Assembly: GCA_016197155.1 (NCBI GenBank)
Contig: JACPWF010000036.1
Coordinates: 931 to 64,930, forward strand
DNA from: Candidatus Omnitrophota bacterium
Lineage (GTDB): Bacteria > Omnitrophota > Gorgyraeia > 2-02-FULL-51-18
Direction of reading: 5' to 3'
DNA length: 64,000 nt
Shown here: one piece after another, positions 1,583 to 33,093 of the stretch
Layout: the number at the start of each line of letters is the position of its first letter
Numbering within the stretch: position 1 is the stretch's first letter
Translations under genes and position numbers: made by a program
The notes under the pieces: generated by a model
Seen by the model: only the letters and a program-made list of their open reading frames with translations
Database searches by the model: none
Told to the model about the DNA's origin: nothing

Positions 1583-2093
1583 AAAAAATATCGTGCTCAT
1601 CGGATTCATGGGGACGGGAAAGACGAGCGTGGGCAAGATCCTCGCCCGCGAGCTCGACCGTCCGCTCGTGGACGTCGATCAGGCGATCGAGGAAAAAGAA
1701 AAAAGAAAGATCGCCGAAATTTTCGAAAAAAGCGGCGAGGCCTATTTCAGGGCCGTTGAGAAAGAGGCCGTCCGCGAGGCGGCCGTCCGGGAGTCCGTCG
1801 TGATCACGACCGGGGGCGGCGCGGTCCTCGACCCCGAGAATCTTGACGCGCTCCGGAGAAACGGGACGCTCATCGCCCTCTCCGCGAAACCCGAGACGAT
1901 TTATGAAAGGGTGAAAAATTCCCGGCACCGCCCGCTTTTGAAAGGAGAGGACCTTTTGGCGCAGATCCAAAAACTTTTGGAGATCCGAAAACCCCATTAC
2001 GAAAAGGCGGACCTGACGCTCGACACCGACGGTCAAACGTCCGCCGAGGTCGCCGCGCGCATTTTGAAGAGGCTTTCCCAAAATGAGGAATGA
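1569..2093 (+). CDS. aroK: Shikimate kinase
   Basis: 174 aa with a P-loop (GFMGTGKTSVGK) and the shikimate kinase fold. Overlaps the 3' end of aroC. Confidence 0.9.
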   Translation: MSNFKKNIVLIGFMGTGKTSVGKILARELDRPLVDVDQAIEEKEKRKIAEIFEKSGEAYFRAVEKEAVREAAVRESVVITTGGGAVLDPENLDALRRNGTLIALSAKPETIYERVKNSRHRPLLKGEDLLAQIQKLLEIRKPHYEKADLTLDTDGQTSAEVAARILKRLSQNEE

Positions 2094-3177
2094 CCCAAAC
2101 GAACTTCGCGAGATCCTGGCCCTCAGCCTCGTGAAAAATATGGGGCCCGTGGCGTTTAAGCGCTTGCTCGAAACGTTCGGAAGCGTCTCGGCGATCTTTC
2201 GGGCGCCGGTCCCGGCGCTTCGCAAGGTGAAGGGCGCCCGGCGCGCGGCGCTCGAAGCATTGAAAGATCCCTCGCTTTTCAAAAAGGCCGACGCGGAAAT
2301 CAAAAAAGCCAATGACGCGGGTGTCGAGATTCTTTCTTTTTTTGACACGCGTTATCCGGAGGAATTGAAAGAAATTTACGACCCGCCGATCCTGCTTTAC
2401 GTGAAAGGCTCTCTGGAAGGGGACGCGCCGCGGATCGCCGTGGTGGGTTCGCGCTCGACCTCGATCTACGGGCGCGAGACGACCAGGCGCCTTTCGCGGG
2501 AATTGGCCGCGGCGGGGCTTGTCGTCGTGAGCGGTTTGGCCGAGGGCATTGACACGGCCGCGCACGAAGGGGCGCTGGAGGGCCGGGGCCGGACCTTCGC
2601 GGTTTTGGGGGGCGGCCTTTCAAGGATTTATCCGAAGGCGAATGAAAAATTGGCACAGCGCATCTGTCAAAACGGGGCCCTCCTCTCGGAATACCCGATG
2701 GAGATGGCGCCGCTCCCTCAATATTTTCCCGTCCGAAACCGCCTCATCAGCGGCCTTTCGCGCGCGGTGCTCGTCATCGAGGCGCGTAAAAACAGCGGGG
2801 CGCTCATCACCGCGGACGCCGCGCTTGAGCAGGGGCGCGAGGTGTTTGCGGTGCCGGGCAATATCGATTCGATCCGGTCCGAGGGCACGAATAGTTTGCT
2901 CCGGGACGGCGCCAAACTCGTCACCTCGGCGGCGGATATTTTGGACGAATGGAAATGGAGGCCGGGGGAAACCGTTTCCGAGAAACGCCTTCCCCGTCCG
3001 CCGCTCGAACCCGCCGAGAAAAAACTTTTATCGCTTTTGGACGCCCAGTCCCTGCAGATCGAGACCCTCATCGAGGAAAGCCGCCTGCCGGTGAATCAGG
3101 CGCTGTCGCTTCTCTCCGTCATGGAAATGAAGGGGCTCGTGAAAGAACTTCCCGGAAAGCATTACGCCAAAAAATGA
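2083..3177 (+). CDS. dprA: DNA processing protein DprA (Smf)
   Basis: 364 aa with a Rossmann-like DprA core (GIDTAAHEGALEGRGRTFAVLGGGLSRIYP) and a C-terminal winged-helix region. Confidence 0.88.
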   Translation: MRNDPNELREILALSLVKNMGPVAFKRLLETFGSVSAIFRAPVPALRKVKGARRAALEALKDPSLFKKADAEIKKANDAGVEILSFFDTRYPEELKEIYDPPILLYVKGSLEGDAPRIAVVGSRSTSIYGRETTRRLSRELAAAGLVVVSGLAEGIDTAAHEGALEGRGRTFAVLGGGLSRIYPKANEKLAQRICQNGALLSEYPMEMAPLPQYFPVRNRLISGLSRAVLVIEARKNSGALITADAALEQGREVFAVPGNIDSIRSEGTNSLLRDGAKLVTSAADILDEWKWRPGETVSEKRLPRPPLEPAEKKLLSLLDAQSLQIETLIEESRLPVNQALSLLSVMEMKGLVKELPGKHYAKK

Positions 3178-5438
3178 CGACCCTTTACACCCCGATCACG
3201 ATCCGGTTAAACGGCGAAAAAAAAGTTTTGGAAAAATCTTTTTCGCTCGACGGGCTTCTGGCGGAATTGTCCATTCCCAAAGAGCGCGTGGCCGTGGAGC
3301 TGAACGGGACGATCCTTTCGAAAGAGGAGCTTCGGGAAAAAATATTGAAAGCCAATGACGAAGTCGAGATCGTGCATTTTGTCGGCGGCGGCGCGAAGGC
3401 GAGCGAAGCGGGGGGCCTTGTGATCGTCGAGTCGCCCGCCAAATGCAAAACGATTCACAAGTATCTGGGGCCCGACTTCGAGGTCACCGCGTCGATGGGC
3501 CACATCATCGATCTGCCGAAAAGTAAAATGGGCATCGACATCGGGCACGATTTCAAACCGCAGTACATCGTGATGCGCGACAAGAAAAAAACGCTTTCGG
3601 ACCTAAAGGAAAAAGCGAAGAAAAAAGAGCGGATCTATCTCGCCTGCGACCCCGACCGCGAAGGGGAGGCGATCAGCTGGCACTTGAAGGAGGAACTGGG
3701 CCGCGGCAAGAAAGTCTCGCGCGTCGTGTTCAACGAAATCACCCAGGAGGCCGTCCGAAAAGCGTTTGAGCGGCCGAAGGACATTGACATGAACCTGGTC
3801 GATGCCCAGCAGGCGCGCCGCGTCGTCGACCGGCTTGTGGGTTATTCCCTGAGCCCGCTTTTATGGCAAAAGGTGGGCAAGGGCCTTTCGGCCGGCCGCG
3901 TGCAGTCGGTGGCCCTGCGCCTGGTCGTCGACCGCGAAAGGCAGATCCGGGCGTTTGTCCCCGAGGAATACTGGTCCATCGAGGCCGAGCTTAAGAAAAA
4001 AACGGGCGGCCACCCTTCTTTCATTGCCAAGCTTGAAAAAATCGGCGGCGAAAAGGCCTCGATCGCCGCGCGCGAAAAAGCCGAAGCGGTTTTGGCGCGC
4101 GCCAAGAACGAGCCGTTCGTTGTCCGGGAAATTAAAAAGCAAAAAAAGAAAAGAAACCCTTTCCCGCCGTACACGACGAGCAAGCTTCAGCAGGCCGCCT
4201 ACAACGTCCTGCGTTTTCCGGCCTCTAAAACGATGCGCGTCGCCCAGATGCTTTACGAGGGCGTCGATGTCGGCTCCGAGGGCAGTGCGGGCCTCATCAC
4301 GTACATGCGCACGGATTCGGTGCGCGTGTCGGAGGGCGCCTTGAAGGAGGTCCGCCAGTTCATTTCCAAAAATTACGGAAAAAATTACCTGCCGCCGGCG
4401 CCGAATATTTACAAATCCAAAAAACAGGCCCAAGAGGCGCACGAGGCGATCCGCCCGACGGCCGTTTCGCGGCGGCCGAAAGACATCGAGCAATATCTGA
4501 CGCCAGATCAATTTAAATTGTACTCGCTCATCTGGGAACAATTTGTCTCAAGCCAAATGATGCCGGGCATTCTCGCGCAGGAGACCGCGGACATCGCGGC
4601 CGGGGACTGCCTCTTTCGCGCCACGGGAAGCCGCGTGGAATTTCCGGGGTGCCTCGCCGCATTCGGCCGCAAAGAGGAAGAGGACAGCCCACTCCCGCCG
4701 CTGGCTGAGGGCGAAACGCTGGTTCTCATTAAAATCGAGCCGCATCAGCATTTCACCAAACCCCCGGCGCGTTTCACCGACGCGTCGCTCGTGAAGGCGC
4801 TCGAGGAAAAAGGGATCGGGCGCCCCTCGACGTACGCGCCGATCATTCTGACGCTCACCAGCCGCGACTACATCCGGCGCGAGGGCGGGAGCCTCGTCCC
4901 GACGGAGCTGGGGATCCTCGTGACGGACCTGCTCGTCAAATATTTCGCGAAGCTCATGGATTTTGAGTTCACGGCGAACATGGAGGAGGAGCTGGATCTC
5001 ATCGAGGAAGGAAAAACCGAATGGGTGGGGGTGGTGCGCGGGTTTTACGGCTCGTTCAGCGGCCAGCTCGATTTTGCCAAAGACAAAATGGAAACGGTGA
5101 AAAAAGAAAACGAGCCGACGAATGAAGTTTGCGAAAAATGCGGGAAGCCCATGGTCATCAAGTGGGGCCGGCACGGGCGCTTCGTGAGTTGTTCGGGTTG
5201 GCCCGATTGCAAGAATGCCAAATCCCTTTCGACCGGCGTGGCCTGTCCTCAATGCGGCAAAGGCCAGCTCGTGCGCCGCAAGGCCAAAAGCGGCCGCGGC
5301 CGCTCCTTTTACGGCTGTACGGCTTATCCCGACTGCACTTACATCGCCAATCGCCTACCCTCCGAAGCTTCAGCGAAGGAGGGCACGCCCTCGGCGCCTC
5401 TGGCGGCCGTATCCGGAAACGATCCCGGCGATGGATAG
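3174..5438 (+). CDS. topA: DNA topoisomerase I with an in-frame N-terminal ThiS/MoaD-like beta-grasp domain
   Basis: ATG at 3174 overlaps the dprA stop (ATGA). Residues 1-73 (ITIRLNGEKK...AVELNGTILSKEEL...NDEVEIVHFVGGG) look like the sulfur carrier ThiS and end in GGG. An 8-aa linker follows, then the canonical TopA start LVIVESPAKCKTI, the Toprim and catalytic domains, and C-terminal zinc ribbons (CEKCGK...CPQCGKG). The ORF-track start at 2949 lies inside dprA and was rejected. Confidence 0.88.
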   Translation: MTTLYTPITIRLNGEKKVLEKSFSLDGLLAELSIPKERVAVELNGTILSKEELREKILKANDEVEIVHFVGGGAKASEAGGLVIVESPAKCKTIHKYLGPDFEVTASMGHIIDLPKSKMGIDIGHDFKPQYIVMRDKKKTLSDLKEKAKKKERIYLACDPDREGEAISWHLKEELGRGKKVSRVVFNEITQEAVRKAFERPKDIDMNLVDAQQARRVVDRLVGYSLSPLLWQKVGKGLSAGRVQSVALRLVVDRERQIRAFVPEEYWSIEAELKKKTGGHPSFIAKLEKIGGEKASIAAREKAEAVLARAKNEPFVVREIKKQKKKRNPFPPYTTSKLQQAAYNVLRFPASKTMRVAQMLYEGVDVGSEGSAGLITYMRTDSVRVSEGALKEVRQFISKNYGKNYLPPAPNIYKSKKQAQEAHEAIRPTAVSRRPKDIEQYLTPDQFKLYSLIWEQFVSSQMMPGILAQETADIAAGDCLFRATGSRVEFPGCLAAFGRKEEEDSPLPPLAEGETLVLIKIEPHQHFTKPPARFTDASLVKALEEKGIGRPSTYAPIILTLTSRDYIRREGGSLVPTELGILVTDLLVKYFAKLMDFEFTANMEEELDLIEEGKTEWVGVVRGFYGSFSGQLDFAKDKMETVKKENEPTNEVCEKCGKPMVIKWGRHGRFVSCSGWPDCKNAKSLSTGVACPQCGKGQLVRRKAKSGRGRSFYGCTAYPDCTYIANRLPSEASAKEGTPSAPLAAVSGNDPGDG
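5358..5383. repeat. 26-nt exact repeat, copy 1 (CCCTCCGAAGCTTCAGCGAAGGAGGG), in-frame inside topA
   Basis: Identical 26-mer also at 14689-14714. It contains the 8-nt palindrome GAAGCTTC flanked by the inverted arms CCCTCC/GGAGGG. In topA it encodes PSEASAKEG. Confidence 0.6.
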
Positions 5439-6312
5439 GCATTTTGAAAAATTTTTAAAATATCTCGGGACCGAAAAAAATTATTCCCGGCACACGCTGA
5501 CGGGCTACGCCGCCGACCTCCGGGAGTTTTACTCGTTTTTGGGAAATCTGCGCCTTCCGGACGTGGAGATCATTTTCCTGAGACGGTATCTGGCGCATTT
5601 GAAGGAAAGAAATCTTTCAAAAAGGACCGTCGCGCGGCGCATGGCGGCCCTCAGGACTTTTTTCCGTTTTTTGACGCGGGAGGGATTCTTAAAGAAAAAT
5701 CCGATCGGGCTTTTGTCGAGCCCGAAGCTTGAGAAAAAACTCCCGATGGTTTTGGATGAAAATGAGGTCACGCGTCTTTTGGAGTCGCCGGAGGATGATT
5801 TGGCCGGGCGCCGGGACAGGGCGATCTTGGAAACGCTGTACTCGGCGGGCCTGCGCGTTTCGGAACTGGTGGGGCTCGATGTGGACGCGGTCGATTTTAT
5901 CGGCGGGGTCTGCCGCGTGTGGGGCAAGGGCCGGAAAGAGCGCCTGTGTCCGGTCGGGGACAGGGCCCTGTCGAGCATCCGGCGGTACCTCGAGATCCGG
6001 CGCAAGGCCTCGAAAAAAAATGAGAAAGCGCTTTTTTTGAACCATTCGCCGCATGAGCGCGGGTCGCGGCTCACGGACCGGAGTGTCAGGCGCATTTTGG
6101 ACAAATACATCGAGCGGACCTCGCGGCGCGAAGACGTCTCGCCGCACACCCTGCGCCATTCCTTCGCGACGCATCTTTTGAATCGCGGCGCGGACCTGCG
6201 GTCGGTTCAGGAACTGTTGGGGCATGAGAATCTGTCCACCACGCAGATTTATACGCACGTGTCCACTTCGCGTTTGAAAGAGGCGTACGACAAGGCGCAC
6301 CCGAGGGCCTGA
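5431..6312 (+). CDS. xerC: Tyrosine recombinase XerC/XerD
   Basis: MDRHFEKFLKYLGTEKNYSRHTLTGYAADL... with the C-terminal catalytic motifs RHSFATHLL...LGHENLSTTQIYTHV. ATG at 5431 overlaps the topA stop. The ORF-track start at 5215 lies inside topA and was rejected. Confidence 0.85.
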   Translation: MDRHFEKFLKYLGTEKNYSRHTLTGYAADLREFYSFLGNLRLPDVEIIFLRRYLAHLKERNLSKRTVARRMAALRTFFRFLTREGFLKKNPIGLLSSPKLEKKLPMVLDENEVTRLLESPEDDLAGRRDRAILETLYSAGLRVSELVGLDVDAVDFIGGVCRVWGKGRKERLCPVGDRALSSIRRYLEIRRKASKKNEKALFLNHSPHERGSRLTDRSVRRILDKYIERTSRREDVSPHTLRHSFATHLLNRGADLRSVQELLGHENLSTTQIYTHVSTSRLKEAYDKAHPRA

Positions 6313-7577: not shown

Positions 7578-8554
7578 AAAAAATCATCGGCTCGTTTTTG
7601 TCGGGAATTTATTATGCCGCGCTCGTCGTGAGCCAGGCGAGCTACCGTTGGCTCCCGTTCCGGATCCGAAAGGTCCCCGCGAAGGTGATCAGCATCGGCA
7701 ATCTCACCTGGGGCGGAACGGGAAAGACGCCGCTCGTCGTGAAGCTGGCCCGGGACATGGCCTATTACGGCAAAAAAGTCGCGGTCCTCGTGCGCGGCTA
7801 CGGAAAGGACGAAGTCGCGGAGCTGAAGAAAAATCTTCCGAATATCCCCGTGATCGTGGGAAAAAACAGGGCCCGTTCCGCCAGGCAGGCGATCCGCCGC
7901 CACGGCGCCGAGGTCCTCATTTTGGACGACGGATTCCAGCACATCCGTCTTCACCGCGATCTCGACATCGTGAACATCAACTCGGTCCTGCCGTTCGGCA
8001 ACGGAAAACTCATCCCGCAGGGGATCTTGCGGGAGCCGGTCGCGCATTTGCGCCGCGCGCATCTTTTTGTCCTGACCAAAAGCAACATCGGCTCGAAAAA
8101 CGTTCACTGGATCCGCCAAAAACTTCTCGAGGTCAAACCCCACGCGCCGATCTTTGAGGCGGTGCACAAGCCCATGCGGTTTTTGGACGCGCTGAAAGGG
8201 CGGACCGTGACGCTCGGCGAGATGAAGGGCCGCCGCGTGGCCACGCTTTCCGGGATCGGCGACCCGTATTCGTTCGAGAAAACCGTCGAAAATCTCGGCA
8301 ACGAGATCGTGCTGGCCGCGCGCTTTGACGACCACCACGCGTACACGCGCAGGGAACTCGGCGATTTTTTTGACCGCTGCCGAAAGGCCGGCGTCAGGGA
8401 GATCGTGACGACCGAAAAGGATTTTTTCCGGATCGATCCGCTGATCAAAAATGAAAAGAGGCCGAATCGGGAGGGCCTGTCCATTTTGGTTCTGCAAATT
8501 GAGTTTCAAGTCCATGATGAAGAAGATTTCCTTCGAAGATGCCTTAATCCTTAA
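7574..8554 (+). CDS. lpxK: Tetraacyldisaccharide 4'-kinase
   Basis: 326 aa with P-loop GNLTWGGTGKTP and full-length LpxK similarity. Confidence 0.88.
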   Translation: MKKIIGSFLSGIYYAALVVSQASYRWLPFRIRKVPAKVISIGNLTWGGTGKTPLVVKLARDMAYYGKKVAVLVRGYGKDEVAELKKNLPNIPVIVGKNRARSARQAIRRHGAEVLILDDGFQHIRLHRDLDIVNINSVLPFGNGKLIPQGILREPVAHLRRAHLFVLTKSNIGSKNVHWIRQKLLEVKPHAPIFEAVHKPMRFLDALKGRTVTLGEMKGRRVATLSGIGDPYSFEKTVENLGNEIVLAARFDDHHAYTRRELGDFFDRCRKAGVREIVTTEKDFFRIDPLIKNEKRPNREGLSILVLQIEFQVHDEEDFLRRCLNP

Positions 8555-10397
8555 CGCTGTCAGGACCGCGCGGTTTTTATTGGGTCTTTTGCCCCTCGGC
8601 GCGGCGCTGGCCGCCGGCCGCGGAATTGGAAGCGCCGTTTACTTTTTTTCCAAAAGGCGGCGGATCATCCGTAAAAATCTGAGGGCCGCGTTTGCCGGAG
8701 AAAAATCGCCGCGCGAACTGCGCGCGATCGCGCGCGGCTCCGTGCAAAACCTCGTGATGGCCGCCGTCGAGGTGCTCCGTTTCCCCGAAATGGACGCGCG
8801 TTATCTCGAAGAACACGTGCGGATCACCGGGATCGAAAAATTTGAGAACGCCCTGGCGAAAGGCCGGGGCATCATTTTTCTGACGGGCCATTTCGGGAAC
8901 TGGGAATTGCTGAGCGTCCTCTCGGGCCTGAAAGGGTATCCGCTGGCGGCGCTGGCCCGTTCGCAAAAACACCCGCGGTCGGATGAGTATTTGAACCGTC
9001 TCCGCACGTCCAAAGGGACCCGGGTGATCCGGAAGGGCATGCCGGTGCGCGAGATTTTGCGCGCGCTCGAGGCCGGTCAGATCGTTGGCATGGTGGGCGA
9101 TCAGGATGCCGGGCGCACGGGCACGTTTGTCCGGTTTTTCGGCCGTTTGTCTTCGAGCCCTGCGGGGGCCGCCGCCTTTGCGATGCGGACGGGGGCCGCG
9201 ATCTTCCCGATCTTTGTTTTCAGGGAAAAAAATACCAATCATTGCGTGGAGATCGAGGAGCCGCTCGTTTTGCCGGACGCGTCGGTTCCGCCGGCCGAGG
9301 CCGAGCGCGTGATCCTGCAGCAGTTCGCGGATTTATTGGAAACCAAGATTCGAAAAAGTCCCTCCCAATGGCTTTGGGCGCACCGGCGCTGGAAATCCAC
9401 CCCCGACCGTTTTGTCGCGGTTTTGAGCGACGGCAAGGCCGGTCATTTGAATCAGTCTCTGGCGCTGGCCGAGGCGTTCGCCGCCGAGCGCGCGGCGATG
9501 GGCATCCCGCGCGAAAATACCCGCGTGAAACAGATACGGGTTTTGTATAAAAATAAATTTTTTGAAAATTTGGCCAAGGCCGTCGGGGCCGCGCACCCGT
9601 TTTTACTCACGCCCGAAACGGCGCGCGAAATCGAGCGGACCTACGCGGACCTCGTCATCTCCTGCGGGTCGTCGCTCGCGGGCGTGAACCATTTCATGAA
9701 ACGGCAAAACGCCGCCAAATCCGCGGTGGTGATGAAGCCCGCCGGCCCGCTCGGCCGCTTTGACGCGGTGATCGTGCCGCGGCACGACGGCCTGAACGCG
9801 CGGGAAAATGTGTTTGTGACCTCCGCCGCGCTTTCTTTGAAACCCGCGGGGGGTTCTTTCTCTCTTTCCAAGGATAAAAAACACATCGGCTTTTTGGTGG
9901 GCGGGGATTTGCCGAATGGGATCGCCGAGGCGATGAGCCGTGCCGGCGAAGAAACAGGCGCGCGATTGCTCGTGACCTCGTCACGAAGGACGCCCGCCTG
10001 GGCCGAGGCGCTTTTAAAAAAAACGTTCGGCGACAGGGAACGTTGTCCGGTTCTGGTCATTGCCAACGAATCCAATCCCCCCGGGGCGATGGGAGGGATT
10101 TTGAATCAATCGGACCTTTTTGTCGTCTCCGGCGAATCGGTGTCGATGGTTTCGGAAGCGGCGGCGCTGGGCAGGCCGGTTCTGGTTTTTTTGCCGTCAC
10201 CCCGGATCAAATTGAAACCCAAGATGAGGACCTTTTTAAACCATTTGTCCGAAGAAGGAAAAATTAAAATCGTCACGCCGGAAACTTTGCCGCAGGCGGC
10301 TCTCAGGGCGCTCGATGGCGCTTCGTGGAATGGAAATGCCCGCGGCGTTTCAAAGGACGCGGAAACCGTGAAGCAGGCCGTGAGAAGGATCCTCTGA
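8514..10397 (+). CDS. Two-domain protein: lipid A late acyltransferase (LpxL/HtrB family) fused to an ELM1/DUF1022 (Mito_fiss_Elm1-like) domain
   Basis: N-terminal half has the HX4E acyltransferase motif (HFGNWE) and LpxL-like architecture. C-terminal half (VLSDGKAGHLNQSLALAEAF...) matches the ELM1/DUF1022 family. ATG at 8514 (MMKKISF), giving a 41-nt overlap with lpxK. Confidence 0.72.
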   Translation: MMKKISFEDALILNAVRTARFLLGLLPLGAALAAGRGIGSAVYFFSKRRRIIRKNLRAAFAGEKSPRELRAIARGSVQNLVMAAVEVLRFPEMDARYLEEHVRITGIEKFENALAKGRGIIFLTGHFGNWELLSVLSGLKGYPLAALARSQKHPRSDEYLNRLRTSKGTRVIRKGMPVREILRALEAGQIVGMVGDQDAGRTGTFVRFFGRLSSSPAGAAAFAMRTGAAIFPIFVFREKNTNHCVEIEEPLVLPDASVPPAEAERVILQQFADLLETKIRKSPSQWLWAHRRWKSTPDRFVAVLSDGKAGHLNQSLALAEAFAAERAAMGIPRENTRVKQIRVLYKNKFFENLAKAVGAAHPFLLTPETAREIERTYADLVISCGSSLAGVNHFMKRQNAAKSAVVMKPAGPLGRFDAVIVPRHDGLNARENVFVTSAALSLKPAGGSFSLSKDKKHIGFLVGGDLPNGIAEAMSRAGEETGARLLVTSSRRTPAWAEALLKKTFGDRERCPVLVIANESNPPGAMGGILNQSDLFVVSGESVSMVSEAAALGRPVLVFLPSPRIKLKPKMRTFLNHLSEEGKIKIVTPETLPQAALRALDGASWNGNARGVSKDAETVKQAVRRIL

Positions 10398-12481
10398 TGC
10401 GAATTTTACAAATTTTGCCCGAGCTCAAATCCGGCGGCGTCGAGCGCGGGACCGTGGACCTGGCGAAATATCTCCAGGCCAAAGGCCACAAGGCCTTTGT
10501 GGTCTCGGCGGGCGGCCCGCTTGTGGGCGACCTGACTTCGGCGGGGGTCATTCATTACGCCCTGCCGGTTCAAAAAAAATCCATTTTTGCCGTGATCCAT
10601 TCCGTCCGGGCGCTCACGCGGATCGTCCGCGAGCAGAATATCGACGTCATTCACGCGCGAAGCCGCGTGCCGGCGCTCGTGGCTTTTTTTGCCGGCCGCG
10701 CCACGCAGGTTCCGTTTGTCACGACCTGCCACGGGTTTTACAGCAGGCATTTTGCCAGCCGCGTCATGGGTTGGGGGAAATGCGTCATCGTGGCCAGCCA
10801 CGTGATCGGCAGGCGGATGCGGGACGATTTCGGCGTGCCGCACGGAAAGATCCGGCTCATCCCGCGCGGCGTGAATTTGAATGAATTCAAAATGCGTCCG
10901 GCCCCGCCCGAAACAAAAGACCGTCCGGTCGTGATCGGGCTCATCGGGCGTCTCACCCCAATCAAGGGCCATCCCTTGTTTTTGAAGGCGATGGCGCGCG
11001 TCGTGCGCGTTTTTCCGAACGTCAAAATTCAAATCATCGGCGACGCCCCCAAGCCGCAATATAAGGAAGAGCTTCTCGGTTTGGCCAGGCATCTGGGCCT
11101 GTCGGAGGCCGTGGAGTTTTTGGGCACGCGCTACGATATCCCCGAACTTCTTTCCGGCATGACGATGCTGGTCGTGCCGTCGGTGGGCGAGGAGGCCTTC
11201 GGGCGGGTGGCAATCGAGGCCGGCGCCTGCGGGGTGCCGGTGGTGGCCACGCGCATGGGGGGGCTCATCGATATTCTGGAGGACGAAAAAGACGGGCTTC
11301 TGGTCGGGCCCGATGACCCGCGGGTTTTGGCGGATGCGATCCTGCGTCTCTTGAAAAACCCGGAGCTTGCCGGGCGGCTCGTGGCCTCCTTCCGGCGAAA
11401 AGTGGAGCGGGAGTTTCATCTGGAGCGGATGTTCGAAAAAACCCTCGGGGTTTACGAAGAGGCCGTTTCCAAAAAAAGAATTTTGGTCATTAAAATAAGC
11501 GCGTTGGGCGACGTGATCCTGAGCGTTCCGTCCCTTCGGGCGATCCGGCAAAAATATCCGGACGCCTGGATCGCGGTGCTCGTGGGCCGCAAGTCGCGCA
11601 AGCTCGTGCGCAACTGCCCTTACCTCAACGACACGATCGTCTACGAAGAGAACGGCGGCCGTTACGGGGCCGCTTTTAAAATGGCGAGGCTTCTGGCCGG
11701 GGAGAATTACGACATCGTCGTGGATTTGCAGAATAACCGCCTGAGCCATTTCCTGGCTTTTTTCTGCGGCGCGCCGGTCCGCGCCGGACACCACAATCAC
11801 AAATGGTCGTTTCTCCTGAACCGCAAAGCGAAAGAGGCGGGCCCCGCCCTGCCTCCCATCGAGCATCAGTTCGCGGTTTTGAAACTTCTGGGGATCGACA
11901 CGCTCGATAAAAAACTGGAGCTGTGGACCCAGGCCGAGGAAGAGGAGCGCGTGCGCGCTTTCCTTCGGTCGTCGTGGGTGGCCCCGAGCCAGACGCTGGT
12001 CGGCATCAATCCGGGCTCCTCGCCGCGCTGGCCGACCAAACAATGGCCGGTTGAAAATTTCGCCGAGCTCTGCGATGAACTGGCCAAACGCAACATCCGC
12101 GTGGTGATCACGGGATCCTCGGATGACGCGGGGCTTGCCGAGACCCTGCTCGCCCAAACGCGCAACAAGCCGATCAACGCCGTGGGCAAGACGTCGATCA
12201 CGGAATTGGTTTCCCTCATCAAGCAGTGCCGGGTCTTTATCAGCTCCGATTCGGCGCCCATGCACATCGCCTCGGGCGTGGACGTGCCGCTGGTCGCGAT
12301 CTTCGGGCCCACGGATCCCAGGCGGCACCTCGTGCCGCCCGCGCGGGTCCGGGTTTTTTGGAAGGAGATTCAGTGCAGTCCCTGTTATCTCCGGAGTTGT
12401 CCGATTGGTCTGGTGTGCATGAAAAAAATCGAGACGCGCGAAGTTTTGGACGCGACGCTTCGTTTTTTGGGTGACCGGTGA
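10397..12481 (+). CDS. Two-domain glycosyltransferase: N-terminal GT4 (GT-B, EX7E motif) fused to C-terminal GT9 heptosyltransferase-like domain
   Basis: N-terminal half ...EEAFGRVAIEAGACGVPVVATRMGGLIDILEDEKDGLLV is GT4-like. C-terminal half ILVIKISALGDVILSVPSLRAIRQKYPDAWIAVLVG... is ADP-heptose:LPS heptosyltransferase-like. ATG at 10397 overlaps the preceding stop. Confidence 0.75.
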   Translation: MRILQILPELKSGGVERGTVDLAKYLQAKGHKAFVVSAGGPLVGDLTSAGVIHYALPVQKKSIFAVIHSVRALTRIVREQNIDVIHARSRVPALVAFFAGRATQVPFVTTCHGFYSRHFASRVMGWGKCVIVASHVIGRRMRDDFGVPHGKIRLIPRGVNLNEFKMRPAPPETKDRPVVIGLIGRLTPIKGHPLFLKAMARVVRVFPNVKIQIIGDAPKPQYKEELLGLARHLGLSEAVEFLGTRYDIPELLSGMTMLVVPSVGEEAFGRVAIEAGACGVPVVATRMGGLIDILEDEKDGLLVGPDDPRVLADAILRLLKNPELAGRLVASFRRKVEREFHLERMFEKTLGVYEEAVSKKRILVIKISALGDVILSVPSLRAIRQKYPDAWIAVLVGRKSRKLVRNCPYLNDTIVYEENGGRYGAAFKMARLLAGENYDIVVDLQNNRLSHFLAFFCGAPVRAGHHNHKWSFLLNRKAKEAGPALPPIEHQFAVLKLLGIDTLDKKLELWTQAEEEERVRAFLRSSWVAPSQTLVGINPGSSPRWPTKQWPVENFAELCDELAKRNIRVVITGSSDDAGLAETLLAQTRNKPINAVGKTSITELVSLIKQCRVFISSDSAPMHIASGVDVPLVAIFGPTDPRRHLVPPARVRVFWKEIQCSPCYLRSCPIGLVCMKKIETREVLDATLRFLGDR

Positions 12482-17986: not shown

Positions 17987-18724
17987 TGGAAGCCATCGGC
18001 ATCATTCCCGCGCGCTACGGCGCCACGCGTTTTGAGGGAAAACTGTTGAAAGACCTGTGCGGAAAACCGGTGATCCAGCACGTGTACGAGCGCGCCCGAA
18101 AAGCGAAACTTTTGGATGACCTGGTGATCGCCGCGGACGACGACCGCATCCTCAAGGCCGTCGAGGCGTTCGGGGGCAAGGCGGTGTTCACCTCCAAATC
18201 CCACAGCACGGGAACCGACCGCCTGACCGAGGTCGCCAACGAAATGGACGTCCGCGTGATCGTGAACATCCAGGGCGACGAGCCGCTCATCCACCCCATG
18301 GTCATCGATGACCTCGTGCGCGCGATGCAGAACGACCCCGAGGCCGTGATGGCGACCGTGGTGAAAAAAAGTTATTCGGAGGAGGAATTCAAAAGCCGGA
18401 ACGTCGTCAAGGTGATCATCGACCAGAACGCCAAGCGCGCGCTTTATTTTTCGCGGATGCCGATCCCCACGTATTTGAAGCCCGCCCCGAACGAGGCGTT
18501 TTTTTACAAGCACATCGGGATCTACGCGTACCAAAAAGATTTTTTATTCACATTCAAAAAACTGCCGAAATCGACGCTTGAGATCCACGAGAGATTGGAA
18601 CAGCTCCGGGCGATCGAGCAGGGATACAAGATCAAAGTGATCGAGACAAAGTTTGAAACGGTCGGCATTGACACGCCGGAGGACCTGGCGATGGCGCAGT
18701 CTCTGCTCGAAAAGGAAGCGGCCC

Positions 18725-18732
<8 letters not shown>
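17986..18732 (+). CDS. kdsB: 3-deoxy-manno-octulosonate cytidylyltransferase (CMP-Kdo synthetase)
   Basis: [32 protein letters not shown]... over the full length. GTG at 17986 overlaps the preceding TAG. Confidence 0.9.
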
Positions 18733-20337
<1,605 letters not shown>

Positions 20338-27573: not shown

Positions 27574-29156
27574 TGGTTAAAATTCTTATTTGCGACGAGC
27601 TGGCCGAGGAAGGCCTCGGATTATTCCGTCAGGAAAAAAATCTGTCCGTTGTTTTGAAGACGAAACTTCCTCTCGAAGAGCTTAAGAAACAGATCGCCGA
27701 CGCCGACGCCTGCATCGTGCGCTCGGGGACTCAGCTCACGGCGGACGTGATCGGGGCCGCCAGGAAACTAAAAGTCATCGGGCGCGCCGGCGTGGGTCTC
27801 GACAACGTCGACGTCGAGGCCGCGTCTAAAAAAGGGATCATCGTGATGAACACGCCCGGAGGGAACACGATCTCGGCCGCCGAGCACACGTTTTCCCTCC
27901 TCATGGCGCTGGCGCGGAATATCCCGCAGGCGAGTGTCTCCGTCAAAAAAGGGGAGTGGGAAAGGAAAAAATTCACGGGTGTCGAGCTTTACGAGAAAAC
28001 GCTGGGGATCCTGGGTCTGGGCCGGATCGGAACCGAGGTGGCCAGGCGCGCGCAGGCCTTCGGCATGCGCGTGATCGGCTATGACCCTTTCCTGCGCGCG
28101 GAAAAAGCGCTCGAGATCGGCGTCGAGGCCGTTTCGCTGGACGAACTTTTGAAACAATCGGATTTCCTGACGCTCCACATGCCGCTCACCGCCGAAAACC
28201 GGCACCTGATCGGCGCGAAGGAACTTGAGAAGATGAAAAAAACCGCGCGCGTCATCAACTGCGCCCGCGGAGGGCTGGTGGATGAGGCCGCGCTCGCCGA
28301 GGCCATTAAAAACGGACGCCTCGCCGGGGCCGCGCTCGACGTGTTTGAGACCGAGCCGCCGGGGGACGGGGCGATCGTGGGCCTGCCGCAGGTGATCGTG
28401 ACCCCGCATCTGGGCGCGTCGACCGAAGAGGCGCAGATCGCCGTGGCCGTCGACGTCGTGCAGAGCGTCATTGATTTCTTCAAAGGCAAAAGCATCCGCA
28501 ACGCCGTGAATTTTCCGTCCGTGGATCCCGAAGTGCTCGAGCAGATCAAGCCCTACATTCATTTGGCGGAAAAAATGGGCTCGCTCCTCGCCCAGCTCAT
28601 CGAGGGCCAGATCCTTCAGGTGGACATCGAATACCACGGACAGGCCGTGGGTTATGAGGCCACGCCGATCACGGTGGCGGCCATCAAAGGACTTTTGGCG
28701 CCGATTTTGGCCGAGAGCGTCAATTACGTGAACGCCTCTTTTCTGGCCAAGGAGCGCGGGATCAAGATCACCGAGGCCAAGACATCCGACGCCTCGCGTT
28801 ATTCCAATTTGATCGATCTCGACGTCCGCACCGATAAAAAAACGAGCAAGATTTCCGGGACCGTGTTCACGCGCGAAGACACGCGGGTGGTCCGGCTCGA
28901 CGGTTTTGACGTCGAGGTGGCGCCGGAGGGGTATCTCCTCCTCATCTCCAACCGCGACGTCCCGGGGATCGTGGGCCAGATCGGCACCCTTTTAGGCGCG
29001 GGCGGCGTCAACATCGCCGGCATGACGCTCGGCCGCGACAAGCCCGGGGGGCAGGCGAGAACCCTTCTCAAAATTGACAGCGCCGTGCCGGACGCGGTGA
29101 TGCATCAGATCAAAAAGGCGAAGAACGTCTTAGACGCCAAACTCATCAGGCTTTAA
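27573..29156 (+). CDS. serA: D-3-phosphoglycerate dehydrogenase (with C-terminal ASB/ACT regulatory domains)
   Basis: 527 aa. NAD-binding GLGRIGTEVARRA, catalytic RGGLVDE and H(P)HLGAST motifs, and a C-terminal ACT domain. Confidence 0.9.
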   Translation: MVKILICDELAEEGLGLFRQEKNLSVVLKTKLPLEELKKQIADADACIVRSGTQLTADVIGAARKLKVIGRAGVGLDNVDVEAASKKGIIVMNTPGGNTISAAEHTFSLLMALARNIPQASVSVKKGEWERKKFTGVELYEKTLGILGLGRIGTEVARRAQAFGMRVIGYDPFLRAEKALEIGVEAVSLDELLKQSDFLTLHMPLTAENRHLIGAKELEKMKKTARVINCARGGLVDEAALAEAIKNGRLAGAALDVFETEPPGDGAIVGLPQVIVTPHLGASTEEAQIAVAVDVVQSVIDFFKGKSIRNAVNFPSVDPEVLEQIKPYIHLAEKMGSLLAQLIEGQILQVDIEYHGQAVGYEATPITVAAIKGLLAPILAESVNYVNASFLAKERGIKITEAKTSDASRYSNLIDLDVRTDKKTSKISGTVFTREDTRVVRLDGFDVEVAPEGYLLLISNRDVPGIVGQIGTLLGAGGVNIAGMTLGRDKPGGQARTLLKIDSAVPDAVMHQIKKAKNVLDAKLIRL

Positions 29157-30451
29157 TGAATACCGTTGTCGTCGGCGCCCAGTGGGGCGATGAAGGCAAG
29201 GGCAAGATCATTGACATCTTGTCCGAGAAAACCGATTTTGTCGTCCGTTACCAGGGCGGCAACAACGCGGGCCACACCGTCGTCAAAAAAAACGGCGAGT
29301 TCATTCTTCACCTGGTCCCTTCCGGAATTTTTCATCAAAACGTGCGCTGTGTGATCGGCAACGGCGTCGTCGTCGATCCGGCCGCGCTTCTGGGCGAAAT
29401 CGGGGAGTTGAAAAAAAAGGGCGTCTCGGTCGGGGGCCGTCTTTTTGTGAGCGAACGCGCGCACCTCATCCTGCCGTATCACCGGATTTACGACCGCCTG
29501 CGCGAGGATAAAAAAGGATTTCTGAAGATCGGCACGACGGGCCGCGGCATCGGGCCCAGTTACGGCGACAAGGCCATGCGCTCGGGCATCCGGATCGTGG
29601 ATTTGTACGACGCGGCGGTTTTCCGCGACAAACTGCGCGTGAGCCTTCTCGAGAAAAACGAAATTTTCAATAAAATTTACGGCTTCGAGGGATTCGATTT
29701 CGAAAAAATTCATGACGAATACCTCGGCTACGCCAAACGGATGAAACCCTTTGTCTGCGACACGGCCCTGGTCCTGCACGAGGCGGTGAAAAAAAGAAAA
29801 TCCATCCTCTTTGAGGGCGCGCAGGGCACGCACCTCGACGTGGATCACGGGACCTATCCTTTTGTGACCTCGAGCTCCGTCGTCGCGGGGGGCGCGGCCG
29901 CCGGCGCGGGTGTCCCGCCGACGGTGATCGATGAGGTGATCGGCGTCGTGAAGGCGTACACCACGCGCGTGGGCGAGGGGCCGTTTCCGACCGAGTTTGA
30001 CGAAACGCTCATGAACACCGTCCGCCAAAAAGGCAAAGAATTCGGCGCCACCACCGGGCGGCCGCGCCGCTGTGGGTGGTTTGACGCCATCCTCGCGCGG
30101 TATTCCTGCATCGTGAACGGGATCAGTCAAATCGCGGTGACGAAGCTCGACGTGCTGGATGATTTGAAAGAGATTAAAATCGGCGTGGGTTACCGGTACG
30201 GCGGAAAATGGCTCCGTCATTTTCCGGCGTCGCTGGCCGCGCAGACAAACGCCGAACCCGTTTACGAAACGCACCCGGGCTGGCTCGAGGACACGTCCGC
30301 CATTAAAAAATTTTCCCTCCTTCCCAAAAATGCCAAACGCTACCTCAGGCGGCTTTCCGGGCTTCTCGAGGCGCCGGTCACGATCCTGTCGGTGGGTTCT
30401 CACGAGAATCAGACGCTTTTCATGCGGGGCGCCAAACGGCATGGAAAATAA
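29156..30451 (+). CDS. purA: Adenylosuccinate synthetase
   Basis: VVVGAQWGDEGKGKIIDIL...GGNNAGHTV over the full length (431 aa). Confidence 0.95.
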   Translation: MNTVVVGAQWGDEGKGKIIDILSEKTDFVVRYQGGNNAGHTVVKKNGEFILHLVPSGIFHQNVRCVIGNGVVVDPAALLGEIGELKKKGVSVGGRLFVSERAHLILPYHRIYDRLREDKKGFLKIGTTGRGIGPSYGDKAMRSGIRIVDLYDAAVFRDKLRVSLLEKNEIFNKIYGFEGFDFEKIHDEYLGYAKRMKPFVCDTALVLHEAVKKRKSILFEGAQGTHLDVDHGTYPFVTSSSVVAGGAAAGAGVPPTVIDEVIGVVKAYTTRVGEGPFPTEFDETLMNTVRQKGKEFGATTGRPRRCGWFDAILARYSCIVNGISQIAVTKLDVLDDLKEIKIGVGYRYGGKWLRHFPASLAAQTNAEPVYETHPGWLEDTSAIKKFSLLPKNAKRYLRRLSGLLEAPVTILSVGSHENQTLFMRGAKRHGK

Positions 30452-31178
30452 GATCCCCCGGCACATCGCGATCATCATGGACGGCAACGGCCGTTGGGCG
30501 CGGGAGCGCGGGCTTCCGCGCGCGGCGGGGCACCGGGCGGGTGTCAAGACCGTCCGCGAGATCGTGAAGGCGTCGCTGGATCTGGGCGTGCCGGTTCTCA
30601 CCCTTTACGCCTTCAGCCAGGAAAATTGGAAGCGTCCCAAAGAGGAGGTGAGCCTTCTCATGGAACTGCTCGATTATTTTTTGAATAAGGAAATTGACCG
30701 GCTGAAAAAAGAGGGCGTGCGCGTGCGCACCATCGGCCGGATCGAGGCCCTGCCGGAGCGGACATTGAAAAAAGTGAAGGCCGCCATGGAGGCGACGCGG
30801 CACAACGACAAGCTCATCCTGAATGTGGCGCTCAATTACGGCGCGCGCACGGAAATTTTAGACGCCGTGAATCAGATCGTGGAAAAGGCCCGCGCGGGCG
30901 GCGTGCCGGGCATGAACGGCTCGGGGCTGACGGAGGAGGTGTTTTCCAATTACCTGTACACGAAGGGCCTGCCGGACCCGGATCTTTTGATCCGCACGAG
31001 CGGCGAGATGCGCCTCAGCAATTTTCTTTTGTGGCAGTTGTCGTACGCGGAGATCTACATCACGAAAAAATACTGGCCCGATTTCGCGCGCGAGGACTAT
31101 CTAAAGGCGATCCGGGAATACCAGAGGCGGGACAGGCGGTTCGGCGACATTTGCGCGGAGGATGCCGCCGGCCGATGA
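30441..31178 (+). CDS. uppS: Undecaprenyl diphosphate synthase
   Basis: HIAIIMDGNGRWARERGLPRAAGHRAG... ATG at 30441 overlaps the purA stop. The ORF-track start at 30330 was rejected. Confidence 0.9.
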   Translation: MENKIPRHIAIIMDGNGRWARERGLPRAAGHRAGVKTVREIVKASLDLGVPVLTLYAFSQENWKRPKEEVSLLMELLDYFLNKEIDRLKKEGVRVRTIGRIEALPERTLKKVKAAMEATRHNDKLILNVALNYGARTEILDAVNQIVEKARAGGVPGMNGSGLTEEVFSNYLYTKGLPDPDLLIRTSGEMRLSNFLLWQLSYAEIYITKKYWPDFAREDYLKAIREYQRRDRRFGDICAEDAAGR

Positions 31179-31993
31179 GCGCGTTTTCGACCCTTTCCCA
31201 GCGCGTGATCACGGGCCTCGTCCTCATCGGCGCCACCGCGGCGATCCTGTTTTTCTCGACGCCGTTTTATTTCAGCGTGGAGGTGACGCTTTTTGTGGCC
31301 CTCGGGCTTCTCGAATTTTTCAATTTAATGCGGGAGGGAAATGTCCCCGTTTACCGGTTTTTCGGCGTGTCGATGGGGATCGTGGTGCCGGTGCTTGTTT
31401 ACATGGAACTGGGAATGGCCGAATCCGGCGAGATCCTTTTTATCGTGCTCGGGTGCCTCTTTTTATTCGTGCTCCAATTTTTCCGCAAAGACAATTCCCA
31501 GGCCCTCATCGGCATCTCGCTCACGCTATTCGGAATTTTGTACGTGAGCTGGTTTTTGAGTTTTTTGATCAAGATCCGCTTTCTCGAAGGCGGGGCCTGG
31601 TGGGCGGCGTATCTCATCGCGGTGACGAAGGCCGCGGACATCGGCGCCTATTTTGTGGGGACCGCGGCGGGCCGGCACAGTTTGATTCCCCACATCAGCC
31701 CCAAAAAGTCCGTCGAGGGCACTTTCGCGGGGTTGGGCGCGAGCGTCCTGGTGTCATGGGCCCTCGGGCCCTATCTGCCGATCCGTTTCGGCGCGGGGCA
31801 CTTGGCGGTGGTCGGCCTTTTGATCGGCGCCGTCGGCCAGATCGGGGATCTTTCCGAATCGCTCATGAAACGTTTTTGCGACACGAAGGATTCGGGGCGG
31901 CTTCTCCCGGGAATGGGCGGGGTCCTGGACGCCGCGGACAGCATTCTCTTCACCGCGCCGATATTTTATTTTCATTTGAGAATATTTGCATGA
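31175..31993 (+). CDS. cdsA: Phosphatidate cytidylyltransferase
   Basis: Multi-pass membrane protein with the CdsA C-terminal signature (SLMKRFCDTKDSGRLLPGMGGVLD). ATG at 31175 overlaps the uppS stop (ATGA). Confidence 0.85.
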   Translation: MSAFSTLSQRVITGLVLIGATAAILFFSTPFYFSVEVTLFVALGLLEFFNLMREGNVPVYRFFGVSMGIVVPVLVYMELGMAESGEILFIVLGCLFLFVLQFFRKDNSQALIGISLTLFGILYVSWFLSFLIKIRFLEGGAWWAAYLIAVTKAADIGAYFVGTAAGRHSLIPHISPKKSVEGTFAGLGASVLVSWALGPYLPIRFGAGHLAVVGLLIGAVGQIGDLSESLMKRFCDTKDSGRLLPGMGGVLDAADSILFTAPIFYFHLRIFA

Positions 31994-33093
31994 AAAAAAA
32001 GGTTTTGATTCTCGGGTCCACCGGCTCGGTCGGTGAAAATACGCTCCGCGTGATCGAGGCGTTCCCGGACCGCTTCCAAGTCGCGGGTCTGGCGGCCGGC
32101 TCGAATGCCAAGCGCCTGGCGGAGCAGGCGGCCAAACACCGCCCCGAGGGCGTCTATCTCCATGATTCCGCCAAGGGGGATCTGTCCGCGTTTTGTTCGT
32201 CGGTGGACTACGACATTTTGGTCGCGGCCACCAGCGGCACCACGGCCCTTTTGCCGGTGATCGAGGCGCTTAGAAACGGCCGCCGCGTGGCGCTGGCGAA
32301 CAAGGAAATTCTCGTCGTGGCGGGGGGCCTCGTCATGGCGGCCCTTCGCGAAAATCCGGTCGCTTCGCTCATTCCCGTGGACAGCGAACACAGCGCCATT
32401 TTTCAATGCCTGGGCGGATGCCGCGCCCACGGCGTCGAGCGCCTCATCCTCACCGGTTCCGGAGGCCCCTTGCGCGAGGTGTCTTCGGAAAATTTTCCCA
32501 ATATTTCCAAAGAAACCGTGGTGAATCATCCGAAATGGAAAATGGGCAAAAAAATTTCCGTGGATTCGGCCACACTCATGAATAAGGGACTTGAGATCAT
32601 CGAGGCGTCCTGGCTTTTTGATCTGGCGATCGAGCGCATCGAGGTGCTGGTGCATCCCGAGGCGGTGGTCCATTCGATGGTGGAGTTTAAGGATGGCGCG
32701 ATCCTGGCGCAGTTGGGCGTCACCGACATGCGGCTCCCGATTCAGTACGCGCTTTCGTTCCCCGAGCGATGGGACTCGCCGGGCCTGCGGCTGGATTTTA
32801 AGGAATTGAACCCACTGCATTTTTATCCGGCGGACAGGAAAAAATTTCCGTGCCTCGCGCTCGCCATCGACGCGGCCAAAAAATCGGGAAGCGCGCCCTG
32901 CGTTTTGAGCGCGGCGGACGAAGTGGCCGTGCGGGCGTATCTCGAGGACCAGATCGGTTTCACGGACATCCCGCGCGTGATCGAGACCGTGCTGTCGCAT
33001 CACCGCCACGTCCCGGATCCGGACCTGCCCCAGATTCAATCGATCCACGCCTGGGCGGCTGAGGAGACGCAAAAATTATGTTTAGCGGACTAG
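31990..33093 (+). CDS. dxr: 1-deoxy-D-xylulose 5-phosphate reductoisomerase
   Basis: MKKKVLILGSTGSVGENTLRVI... over the full length (367 aa). The 643-aa ORF-track entry 31162-33093 is an upstream extension in the same frame that overlaps cdsA in a different frame and was rejected. Confidence 0.95.
   Translation: MKKKVLILGSTGSVGENTLRVIEAFPDRFQVAGLAAGSNAKRLAEQAAKHRPEGVYLHDSAKGDLSAFCSSVDYDILVAATSGTTALLPVIEALRNGRRVALANKEILVVAGGLVMAALRENPVASLIPVDSEHSAIFQCLGGCRAHGVERLILTGSGGPLREVSSENFPNISKETVVNHPKWKMGKKISVDSATLMNKGLEIIEASWLFDLAIERIEVLVHPEAVVHSMVEFKDGAILAQLGVTDMRLPIQYALSFPERWDSPGLRLDFKELNPLHFYPADRKKFPCLALAIDAAKKSGSAPCVLSAADEVAVRAYLEDQIGFTDIPRVIETVLSHHRHVPDPDLPQIQSIHAWAAEETQKLCLAD

Follow-up and report, generated by a model that had tools for sequence, protein, structure and literature searches.

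ThiS and MoaD are bacterial relatives of ubiquitin, and the chemistry of ThiS needs a free carboxylate on its terminal Gly-Gly. Eukaryotes carry fusion genes of ubiquitin with ribosomal proteins, UBA52 and RPS27A. Among the bacterial carriers, ThiS-ThiG, ThiS-ThiF, ThiS-sulfite reductase and MoaD-MoaE fusions are known, and JAB processing of such ThiS/MoaD fusions was predicted (Iyer, Burroughs and Aravind 2006, PMC1779556). The MoaD-MoaE protein of Deinococcus radiodurans (DR2607) is cut by the JAMM protease DRJAMM, which exposes the C-terminal glycine needed for activity (PMC8832034). In the present work, a ThiS module was found joined in frame to the N-terminus of DNA topoisomerase I (TopA) in a metagenome-assembled genome (MAG) of Candidatus Omnitrophota (GenBank assembly GCA_016197155.1). 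The gene lies in a stretch of 64,000 nucleotides of contig JACPWF010000036.1 (positions 931 to 64,930 of the forward strand); this whole stretch is called the window, and coordinates refer to it unless stated otherwise.

Comparison with described carrier fusions

The module shares with canonical ThiS (YjbS of Bacillus subtilis, 1TYG; Escherichia coli ThiS, 1F0Z and 1ZUD) its length, fold, conserved positions and EIVHFVGGG end. It differs in being fused without a stop codon after the Gly-Gly, in lying at a locus without thi genes or a thiamine pyrophosphate (TPP) riboswitch, and in its predicted co-translation with an essential DNA enzyme.

Fusions of the ThiS-ThiG type resemble ThiS-TopA in having an N-terminal ThiS, an intact VGGG, a small residue next to it and a short linker. 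In-frame ThiS-ThiG fusions were present in 10 of 80 sampled ThiS loci (L066, L069, L070, L073, L075, L076, L077, L087, L113 and L137), with junctions of the form VGGG-(S/A/E/D)-short linker. The partners ThiG, ThiF and sulfite reductase act in the same sulfur pathway as ThiS, whereas TopA is not known to be connected with sulfur transfer; since the C-terminal partner is TopA, the fusion falls outside the ThiS-ThiG bifunctional class. At another locus (L072), ThiS runs in frame into an extension of about 300 residues of no identified family, and canonical ThiS proteins with tails of 10–50 residues after VGGG were also encountered (P0282, P0285, P0301, P0310, P0324, P0346, P0353 and P0376). These tails suggest either that removable C-terminal pro-sequences are common in the family or that some stop codons were missed.

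The MoaD-MoaE protein also joins a beta-grasp carrier through Gly-Gly to a downstream protein, the corresponding junction here being VGGG-A. It differs in that the carrier is of the MoaD family, the partner belongs to the same pathway and the protease, DRJAMM, has been identified, whereas for ThiS-TopA it is a predicted one. In UBA52 and RPS27A, as here, an N-terminal ubiquitin fold with Gly-Gly stands head-to-tail on an unrelated, essential housekeeping protein, but those genes are eukaryotic, depend on dedicated deubiquitinases and encode a protein modifier, and no homology of the partners is implied. A full type IA topoisomerase I with an extra lineage-specific globular domain is also found in Chlamydia as TopA-SWIB (NF004966; PMC12445093); SWIB is C-terminal and related to DNA or chromatin, whereas the ThiS on TopA is N-terminal and a metabolic sulfur carrier. 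The Thi4-ThiS-ThiF clusters of ThiG-less prokaryotes, among them an Omnitrophica MAG (PMC13325395), show that Omnitrophota use ThiS even without ThiG and would provide a plausible client for a released ThiS. In these clusters thiS is free beside thi4 and thiF, whereas here it lies beside or inside topA and neither of those genes was seen within 10 kb.

Two systematic surveys of beta-grasp proteins (one of them PMC1779556) do not mention a ThiS-topoisomerase fusion, and no described ThiS-TopA fusion was found in the literature, a weak negative given that 'ThiS' cannot be separated from 'this' in a text search. Fusions of ThiS and MoaD are already known; a topoisomerase as the partner appears to be new, no precedent having been found.

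The fused reading frame

The fusion is an open reading frame (ORF) of 754 amino acids on the plus strand, running from the ATG at 3174 to the TGA at 5436–5438 without an internal stop. Residues 1–73 (3174–3392) constitute the ThiS module, a beta-grasp sulfur carrier whose core matched by hidden Markov model (HMM) comprises residues 10–73 (3201–3392). It ends in ...DEVEIVHFVGGG, with VGGG at 3381–3392 and the three glycines Gly71-Gly72-Gly73, the canonical ThiS C-terminus and predicted processing site, at 3384–3392. The next codon is a sense codon. The frame continues through the linker AKASEAGG (residues 74–81, 3393–3416) into LVIVESPAKCKTI, which starts at 3417 and forms the first Toprim strand of TopA. 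At the gene level the Gly-Gly is not C-terminal, as 681 further codons follow the GGG. The positions that the sequence-only reading had given to the ThiS end, the linker, the TopA start, an in-frame GTG at 3420 and a preceding run of G residues all proved correct. The public entry for the protein, MBI3252951.1 ('type I DNA topoisomerase [Candidatus Omnitrophica bacterium]'), starts from the identical ATG.

The N-terminal piece was identified as ThiS by several independent comparisons. The equivalog model TIGR01683 (thiS, NCBIfam) matched with 67.8 bits (E 7e-19; cut-off 37.45 bits) over its full length, model positions 1–64 of 64, with G73 as the last match. Pfam ThiS (PF02597) scored 46.7 bits (E 5e-12), also above its cut-off of 22.5 bits. 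In a phmmer search of PDB sequences, residues 10–73 aligned with B. subtilis ThiS (1TYG_B) up to its final residue, EIVHFVGGG being identical, and Geobacter ThiS (2K5P) was aligned as well. An AlphaFold (AF2) model of residues 1–76 (pLDDT 76.5) showed the order strand-strand-helix-strand-strand-helix-strand of the beta-grasp fold; Foldseek retrieved with it the ThiS structures 3CWI, 1ZUD, 1TYG, 1F0Z and 2LEK as best matches, followed by TtuB, MoaD and ubiquitin. Scores against TIGR01683 were 68–81 bits for fused ThiS, 72 bits for a split form described below and 69–82 bits for three comparison ThiS (one from a thiS-thiG operon, two stand-alone); relatives and comparison proteins together numbered nine, with 68–82 bits. 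The net charge of the domain is slightly acidic, with 10 K/R against 12 D/E. In sequence as in fold, the N-terminal piece therefore belongs to the ThiS family and is indistinguishable from canonical ThiS, and the earlier proposal of a ThiS/MoaD-like ubiquitin-fold domain with an intact GGG, in frame on the TopA N-terminus, is borne out by HMM, PDB and fold searches alike. Because the Gly-Gly is not C-terminal in the gene, the module is better called a ThiS precursor or ThiS domain than free ThiS.

The TopA part is complete, matching TIGR01051 with 797 bits (cut-off 456) over residues 82–685. Its Toprim domain (residues 82–189, 3417–3740; PF01751, 84.7 bits) contains Glu86 and DPDREGE at 3648–3668. 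The type IA core (residues 204–621, 3783–5036; PF01131, 421 bits) carries the catalytic Tyr within ITYMRTDS at 4296–4319, and two C4 zinc ribbons, CEKC...GWPDC and CPQC...AYPDC, follow at 5124–5336 (PF01396, 88 bits in two stretches). The catalytic residues are intact in LVIVE86SP, D159PDREGE and ITY377MRTDS.

Distribution of the fusion

A protein search with residues 1–200 returned seven divergent fragments, 50–69% identical and alike in their ThiS plus Toprim architecture. When one genome per GTDB species was scanned, 12 MAGs were found to carry the in-frame fusion, with 63–72% identity over the 200-residue query and 66–74% over the full protein; six of them are named Candidatus Omnitrophota and six bear the automatic name 'Planctomycetia'. 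A metagenome scan yielded five further fusions (L059, L060, L062, L067 and L110), and truncated ones came from protein searches (P0121, P0123, P0275 and P0277). Thus the same extension recurs on TopA orthologues at 20 or more other loci, at all of which the frame reads from VGGG through to LVIVESP. The linker is 5–35 amino acids long and differs in length and composition between loci. No frameshifts, deletions or degenerate copies were seen among 21 fused loci and the further fragments.

An artefact in this MAG, by which a stop codon or a frameshift between thiS and topA was lost from the assembled sequence, had been allowed for by the sequence-only reading for the interval 3392–3420. The source is a metagenome-assembled genome, and a related contig (L001) does hold a frameshift, though deeper inside topA. 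The in-frame junction recurs, however, in more than 20 independent and divergent assemblies from different studies, at 54–74% protein identity and with differing linkers, and a shared assembly error is excluded because linker length and sequence vary locus by locus. The chance of an artefact is therefore negligible, and the fusion is genuine and conserved in one Omnitrophota subclade. The frameshift of L001 (1004–1062 of this locus, NCBI metagenome contig OBEQ011933681.1) lies after Toprim, where it splits the gene call and leaves the ThiS-Toprim junction unaffected; it is probably an assembly error.

The architecture is rare. When 1.84 billion cluster representatives were searched with a profile covering ThiS and Toprim, only three clusters (50% identity) among the 150 best matches spanned both parts. 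Other TopAs labelled Omnitrophica begin with Met and a short tail and are unfused. The genome scan also gave matches to query residues 15–195 in Firmicutes (Intestinibacillus and Ruminococcaceae; L018, L030, L031, L034, L035 and L041) that seemed to link thiS to topA. These were rejected upon translation: TopA starts there with MSKL, and what precedes it is the end of dprA, read in a different frame. The dprA-topA pair is adjacent in Oscillospirales too, and the tblastn similarity of the C-terminal region of DprA to ThiS is weak and spurious. Unrelated TopAs with N-terminal tails of 50–80 residues, rich in Lys, Ala and Pro, before LVIVESP were also observed (P0162, P0203, P0228 and P0231); these tails resemble the longer fusion linkers of L006, L059 and P0275.

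A split thiS-topA pair in a sister lineage

The closest free ThiS found was P0269, a protein of 78 amino acids with 50% identity, encoded directly upstream of topA on a contig of 124 kb (L055, Ga0494960_00000077). An independent assembly (L056) is identical in sequence. The junction reads ...CAT TTT GTG GGC GGA GGT TGA GGC ATG GCG GCG AAA CGT AAG AGC CTG GTG ATT GTG GAG..., so that thiS ends with HFVGGG and its stop TGA, a single spacer codon GGC and the ATG of topA share one frame. The downstream block xerC-waaA-lpxK-lpxL/Elm1 is that of the window. The TopA tail M-A-A-K-R-K-S of this split form aligns with the fused linker, and its M-A-A-K matches L-A-A-K of the truncated fusion P0123.

In a simple neighbour-joining tree of 562 TopA core columns, with few unfused Omnitrophota as outgroups, the thiS-linked TopAs formed one clade (78% bootstrap). 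Group A, consisting of the window and 13 others, is fused throughout (100%), and in group B the fused L110 and the split L055 are sisters (100%). The thiS-topA pair is therefore ancestral to the clade, and the fused or split state has changed at least twice, by point mutations, since split L055 nests as the sister of fused L110.

The split operon of the sister lineage explains how the fusion arose. In an ancestor within Omnitrophota, thiS directly preceded topA; when thiS lost its stop codon, both genes came to be read as one frame, and what had been the N-terminal tail of TopA turned into the linker.

Translation of the fused gene

The fused gene directly follows dprA (DNA-processing protein A; 2083–3177, plus strand; Pfam DNA_processg_A, 260.6 bits, and DprA_WH), and the TGA of dprA overlaps the fusion ATG in ATGA (3174–3177). 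The same overlap of –4 was found in 9 of 14 group A loci, so that the fusion is translationally coupled to dprA in this group. Promoter-like or terminator-like sites in the dprA-topA interval did not rise above chance. The split L055 has a strong sigma-70-like site, TTTACA-17-TATAAT (11 of 12 matches), 24 nt upstream of thiS, and motifs resembling TTTACA/TAnAAT were seen by eye before the fused genes of L002 and L003.

It was also considered that two products are made, with TopA translated additionally or mainly from the in-frame GTG at 3420 (Val83) behind GGGGGG, as the sequence-only reading had suggested. In the window this GTG and the G-run (3409–3414, the whole element spanning 3409–3422) do exist, and 13 of the 21 fused loci have GTG as their codon for Val83. 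In the other eight it is GTC, L013 and L110 contain no in-frame ATG, GTG or TTG between the GGG and the end of LVIV, and a Shine-Dalgarno-like GGAG or G-run precedes the candidate start at five of the 21 loci. Neither the codon nor a start nor a ribosome-binding site is therefore conserved, and the proposed internal start did not hold up. Initiation at Val83 would moreover deprive the first Toprim strand of its opening residue, and an internal start, even if used, would leave ThiS unreleased. Taken together, a second product of this kind is extremely unlikely. Because there is neither a stop codon nor a conserved internal start, the predicted product must be a single polypeptide of 754 amino acids. 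On this prediction TopA alone would have no conserved translational route, and ThiS alone none whatever.

Selective constraint on the ThiS part

Evolutionary rates were compared among 13 full-length orthologues, with dS saturated in many pairs. For ThiS the mean amino acid identity was 0.57, with pN 0.30, pS 0.77 and a dN/dS of about 0.19 in unsaturated pairs; the corresponding identity and dN/dS values were 0.83 and about 0.06 for Toprim, and 0.71 and about 0.10 for the TopA core. The ThiS domain is clearly under purifying selection, though less constrained than TopA.

Fourteen positions are invariant in an alignment of 21 ThiS sequences (N13, G14, L28, L29, V39, E42, N44, D62, E65, V67, V70 and G71–G73), and these are the ones conserved in ThiS generally. 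The conservation pattern equals that of 75 other ThiS sequences, taken from thiS-thiG operons, ThiS-ThiG fusions and stand-alone genes, with one notable exception, a Trp. None of the 28 topA-linked ThiS departs from the three terminal glycines, while the glycine codons vary synonymously (GGC/GGA/GGG/GGT) and the residues that follow are hypervariable. An invariant GGG beside a hypervariable linker is what would be expected if the Gly-Gly end were still used.

These data bear on a further explanation, namely that loss of a stop codon accidentally fused two neighbours, that the ThiS part is idle and that the fusion is tolerated as harmless to TopA. Such an origin would be easy, as single point changes would be enough to fuse the split form (TGA-GGC-ATG in frame), and the rarity of the architecture would agree with it. 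An idle domain would however not be expected to show the purifying selection measured here, nor full-length TIGR01683 matches above cut-off in every lineage tested, nor to be free of frameshifts, deletions and degenerate copies across the 21 fused loci and fragments. A tolerated accident is thus very unlikely and appears largely refuted by the selection analysis.

Fate of the ThiS module

The reading that we favour, to which the sequences and the analogy with processed fusions give about an even chance, is that the fusion is a precursor from which ThiS is released by cleavage after Gly73. The chain of 754 amino acids would be cut right after Gly73 by an endopeptidase encoded elsewhere in the genome, a JAMM/MPN+-type or other peptidase. 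The free ThiS, now with a Gly-Gly carboxylate, would be converted to the thiocarboxylate by an E1-like adenylyltransferase and would serve thiazole synthesis via Thi4 or ThiG. The other product would be an ordinary TopA with a short N-terminal tail, its first residue Ala74, its N-terminus AKASEAGGLVIV and its N-terminal peptide AKASEAGGLVIVESPAK. On the precursor reading the fusion would behave like MoaD-MoaE of Deinococcus or the eukaryotic fusions of ubiquitin with ribosomal proteins, and would not represent a new TopA domain.

Release is favoured because ThiS chemistry, as known from the family, requires a free Gly-Gly carboxylate, because every hallmark of a working ThiS is kept, with the GGG invariant beside a freely evolving linker, and because switching between the split and fused states is easiest if both are functionally equivalent. 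In addition, C-terminal fusions and tails are common on ThiS and must be matured somehow, and a JAMM protease carries out just such a maturation on MoaD-MoaE of D. radiodurans. The use of ThiS by Omnitrophota, described below, also speaks for release.

Several findings weigh against release. In the window, 41 ORFs scanned with Pfam included no ThiF, ThiG, ThiH, ThiC, ThiE, Thi4, Moa, E1 or JAMM gene, in agreement with the earlier remark that thiamine and molybdopterin genes are missing nearby. Nor did the genes annotated in relatives, up to 10 kb from the fusion, include any ThiF, ThiG, Thi4, ThiH, Moa, E1 or JAMM gene, so that no partner is tied to the locus; for the conserved upstream genes, dprA and xerC this annotation came from Pfam in L007 and L015, whereas the downstream block and the remaining related loci were compared only through clustered ORFs and the precomputed Pfam labels of L001 and L055. 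The region is strongly syntenic, so the adjacency of thiS and topA alone is no proof of a functional link. Where canonical ThiS has a conserved Trp, the topA-linked sequences are relaxed to L/F/Y/W, which could be a sign of a changed partner, and the invariant GGG could have been kept for structural or linker reasons.

The main rival is a permanently tethered module, in which the unreleased ThiS fold would be an N-terminal accessory part of TopA, for example an adaptor for an E1-like enzyme or other partner, an autoregulatory lid on Toprim, or an aid to folding or solubility. By Rosetta-stone logic, ThiS of the split lineage would then associate with TopA non-covalently, as a subunit of its own. 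We rate this reading as rather unlikely, though as the strongest of the alternatives. The absence of thiamine genes, a TPP riboswitch or a protease from the locus and the relaxed Trp are in line with it, and so is the flexible linker of variable length (pLDDT below 50 in the AF2 models), typical of tethered domains. Across a clade in which TopA identity falls to about 54%, thiS and topA stay paired, split or fused, also at loci with a different upstream gene (dprA or a phosphoribosyltransferase); yet the unrelated neighbours xerC, waaA and lpxK are equally syntenic, so that adjacency weighs little. TopA also accepts lineage-specific extra domains, such as SWIB in Chlamydia (NF004966; PMC12445093). 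On the other hand, no family-specific or TopA-specific signature was found: the module scores like ThiS of thiamine operons, its invariant positions are only those general to ThiS, and the slightly acidic charge speaks against a DNA-binding role. Ubiquitin-like domains that have become integrated normally lose their Gly-Gly end, whereas the GGG here is invariant next to a hypervariable linker. The AF2 model of residues 1–200 (pLDDT 61.7, pTM 0.41) was too weak to judge a docking of ThiS on Toprim.

Among the mechanisms proposed in the sequence-only reading, the internal GTG is consequently dropped, and proteolytic release and a permanent appendage both stay, with release preferred. A bolder idea, which we consider improbable, is that ThiS is a ubiquitin-like partner of topoisomerase I, either as a tethered regulator or as a domain cut off and re-used as a modifier. 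If so, a ubiquitin-type or sulfur-relay system would be coupled to the control of DNA supercoiling in these bacteria, the locus would be a prokaryotic counterpart of the eukaryotic ubiquitin-housekeeping protein fusion genes, and a physical or functional interaction would lie behind the repeated changes between the split and the fused state.

An obligatory ThiS N-terminus on an essential and unrelated enzyme raises the question whether it is cut off, and by what. If it is, as the precursor reading has it, a housekeeping-protein fusion would be processed in a deubiquitinase-like manner in these uncultivated bacteria, following the gene logic of the eukaryotic ubiquitin-ribosomal protein fusions, and the fusion would provide a handle on the maturation of the common ThiS-ThiG and tailed ThiS precursors. 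If it is uncut, TopA has gained a ubiquitin-fold accessory domain and with it a new topoisomerase architecture. In either case, the plain label 'type I DNA topoisomerase' of MBI3252951.1 means that pathway reconstructions could miss thiS in such genomes.

Thiamine genes in Omnitrophota

With the ThiS HMM, no second ThiS was found in six-frame translations of the window and of loci L001–L058. Protein searches for a free ThiS of the same MAGs, with ThiS alone or as a profile, returned only unnamed or non-Omnitrophota ThiS, the split P0269 and the truncated fusions P0275 and P0277. Neither a TPP riboswitch nor another upstream RNA element was detected in the window and L001–L003 at Rfam gathering thresholds.

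In 176 complete Omnitrophota genomes described in a preprint, thiC, thiE, thiL and iscS are near-universal and thiG is present in 38. In an Omnitrophica MAG, Thi4 is clustered with thiS and thiF, and complementation of E. coli was better with the ThiF and ThiS of the host (PMC13325395). The list of KEGG orthologues of one Omnitrophota genome contains thiS, topA, moeB, moaD and the JAMM hydrolase mec and neither thiG nor thiF (supplement of Seymour et al. 2023); this genome was not matched to any fusion-bearing MAG. The same authors call the 'thiamine pathway' common, a pathway defined there by thiC and thiD only (Seymour et al. 2023).

Gene content of the window

As a whole, the 64-kb window has the character of a housekeeping region, with aroC, aroK, dprA, the fusion, xerC, waaA, lpxK and lipopolysaccharide (LPS) glycosyltransferases, genes like kdsA/kdsD and lptC/lptB, and tig, clpP, serA, dxr, rseP, proS, nusA, infB and scpAB, as well as pheA, tyrA, rpsA, tyrS and an rRNA operon. 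In related MAGs the order alr-ilvBNC-leuA-aroE-pilD-aroC-aroK-dprA-[fusion]-xerC-waaA-lpxK-lpxL is kept. The gene following the fusion (5431–6312, plus strand) encodes a tyrosine recombinase of the XerC type, assigned by Pfam on the L007 orthologue and by synteny, and is the first of the downstream block xerC-waaA-lpxK-lpxL/Elm1.

In this block, an ORF of 648 amino acids (8451–10397) joins an LpxL-like lipid A acyltransferase domain to an Elm1-like domain ('mitochondrial fission ELM1', PF06258). This fusion is kept in 9 of 13 related Omnitrophota loci, the contigs of the other four ending earlier, and in the split-form L055. It is followed by an ORF of 718 amino acids (10325–12481) that combines a GT4 glycosyltransferase with a GT9 heptosyltransferase and adjoins two GT9 genes and a polysaccharide deacetylase. 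At 31162–33093, an ORF of 643 amino acids has the domains of DXP reductoisomerase from residue 281 onwards, its first 280 residues being without a Pfam match; either the ORF reaches too far upstream or it is fused to a preceding gene. A MazF/PemK-type toxin gene (45593–45985) lies directly upstream of the prephenate dehydrogenase gene (45982–46827) and overlaps its start. Four ORFs of 377–564 amino acids on the minus strand (18632–20326, 29153–30601, 39526–40659 and 44053–45492) have no Pfam match, in a region whose recognised genes nearly all run on the plus strand; these four could be genes of an unknown kind or ORFs that arose by chance in GC-rich DNA.

The rRNA operon extends from 53684 to 60396. 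Its 16S rRNA gene is only 1356 nt long, yet it matches the full model of 1533 positions, and two tRNA genes follow at 55207–55371. The 23S rRNA gene (55490–59219) is split by two group I introns at 57518–57763 and 57815–58483, the second of which carries an ORF for a LAGLIDADG homing endonuclease (57980–58471), and the 5S rRNA gene is located about 1 kb downstream of the 23S rRNA gene.

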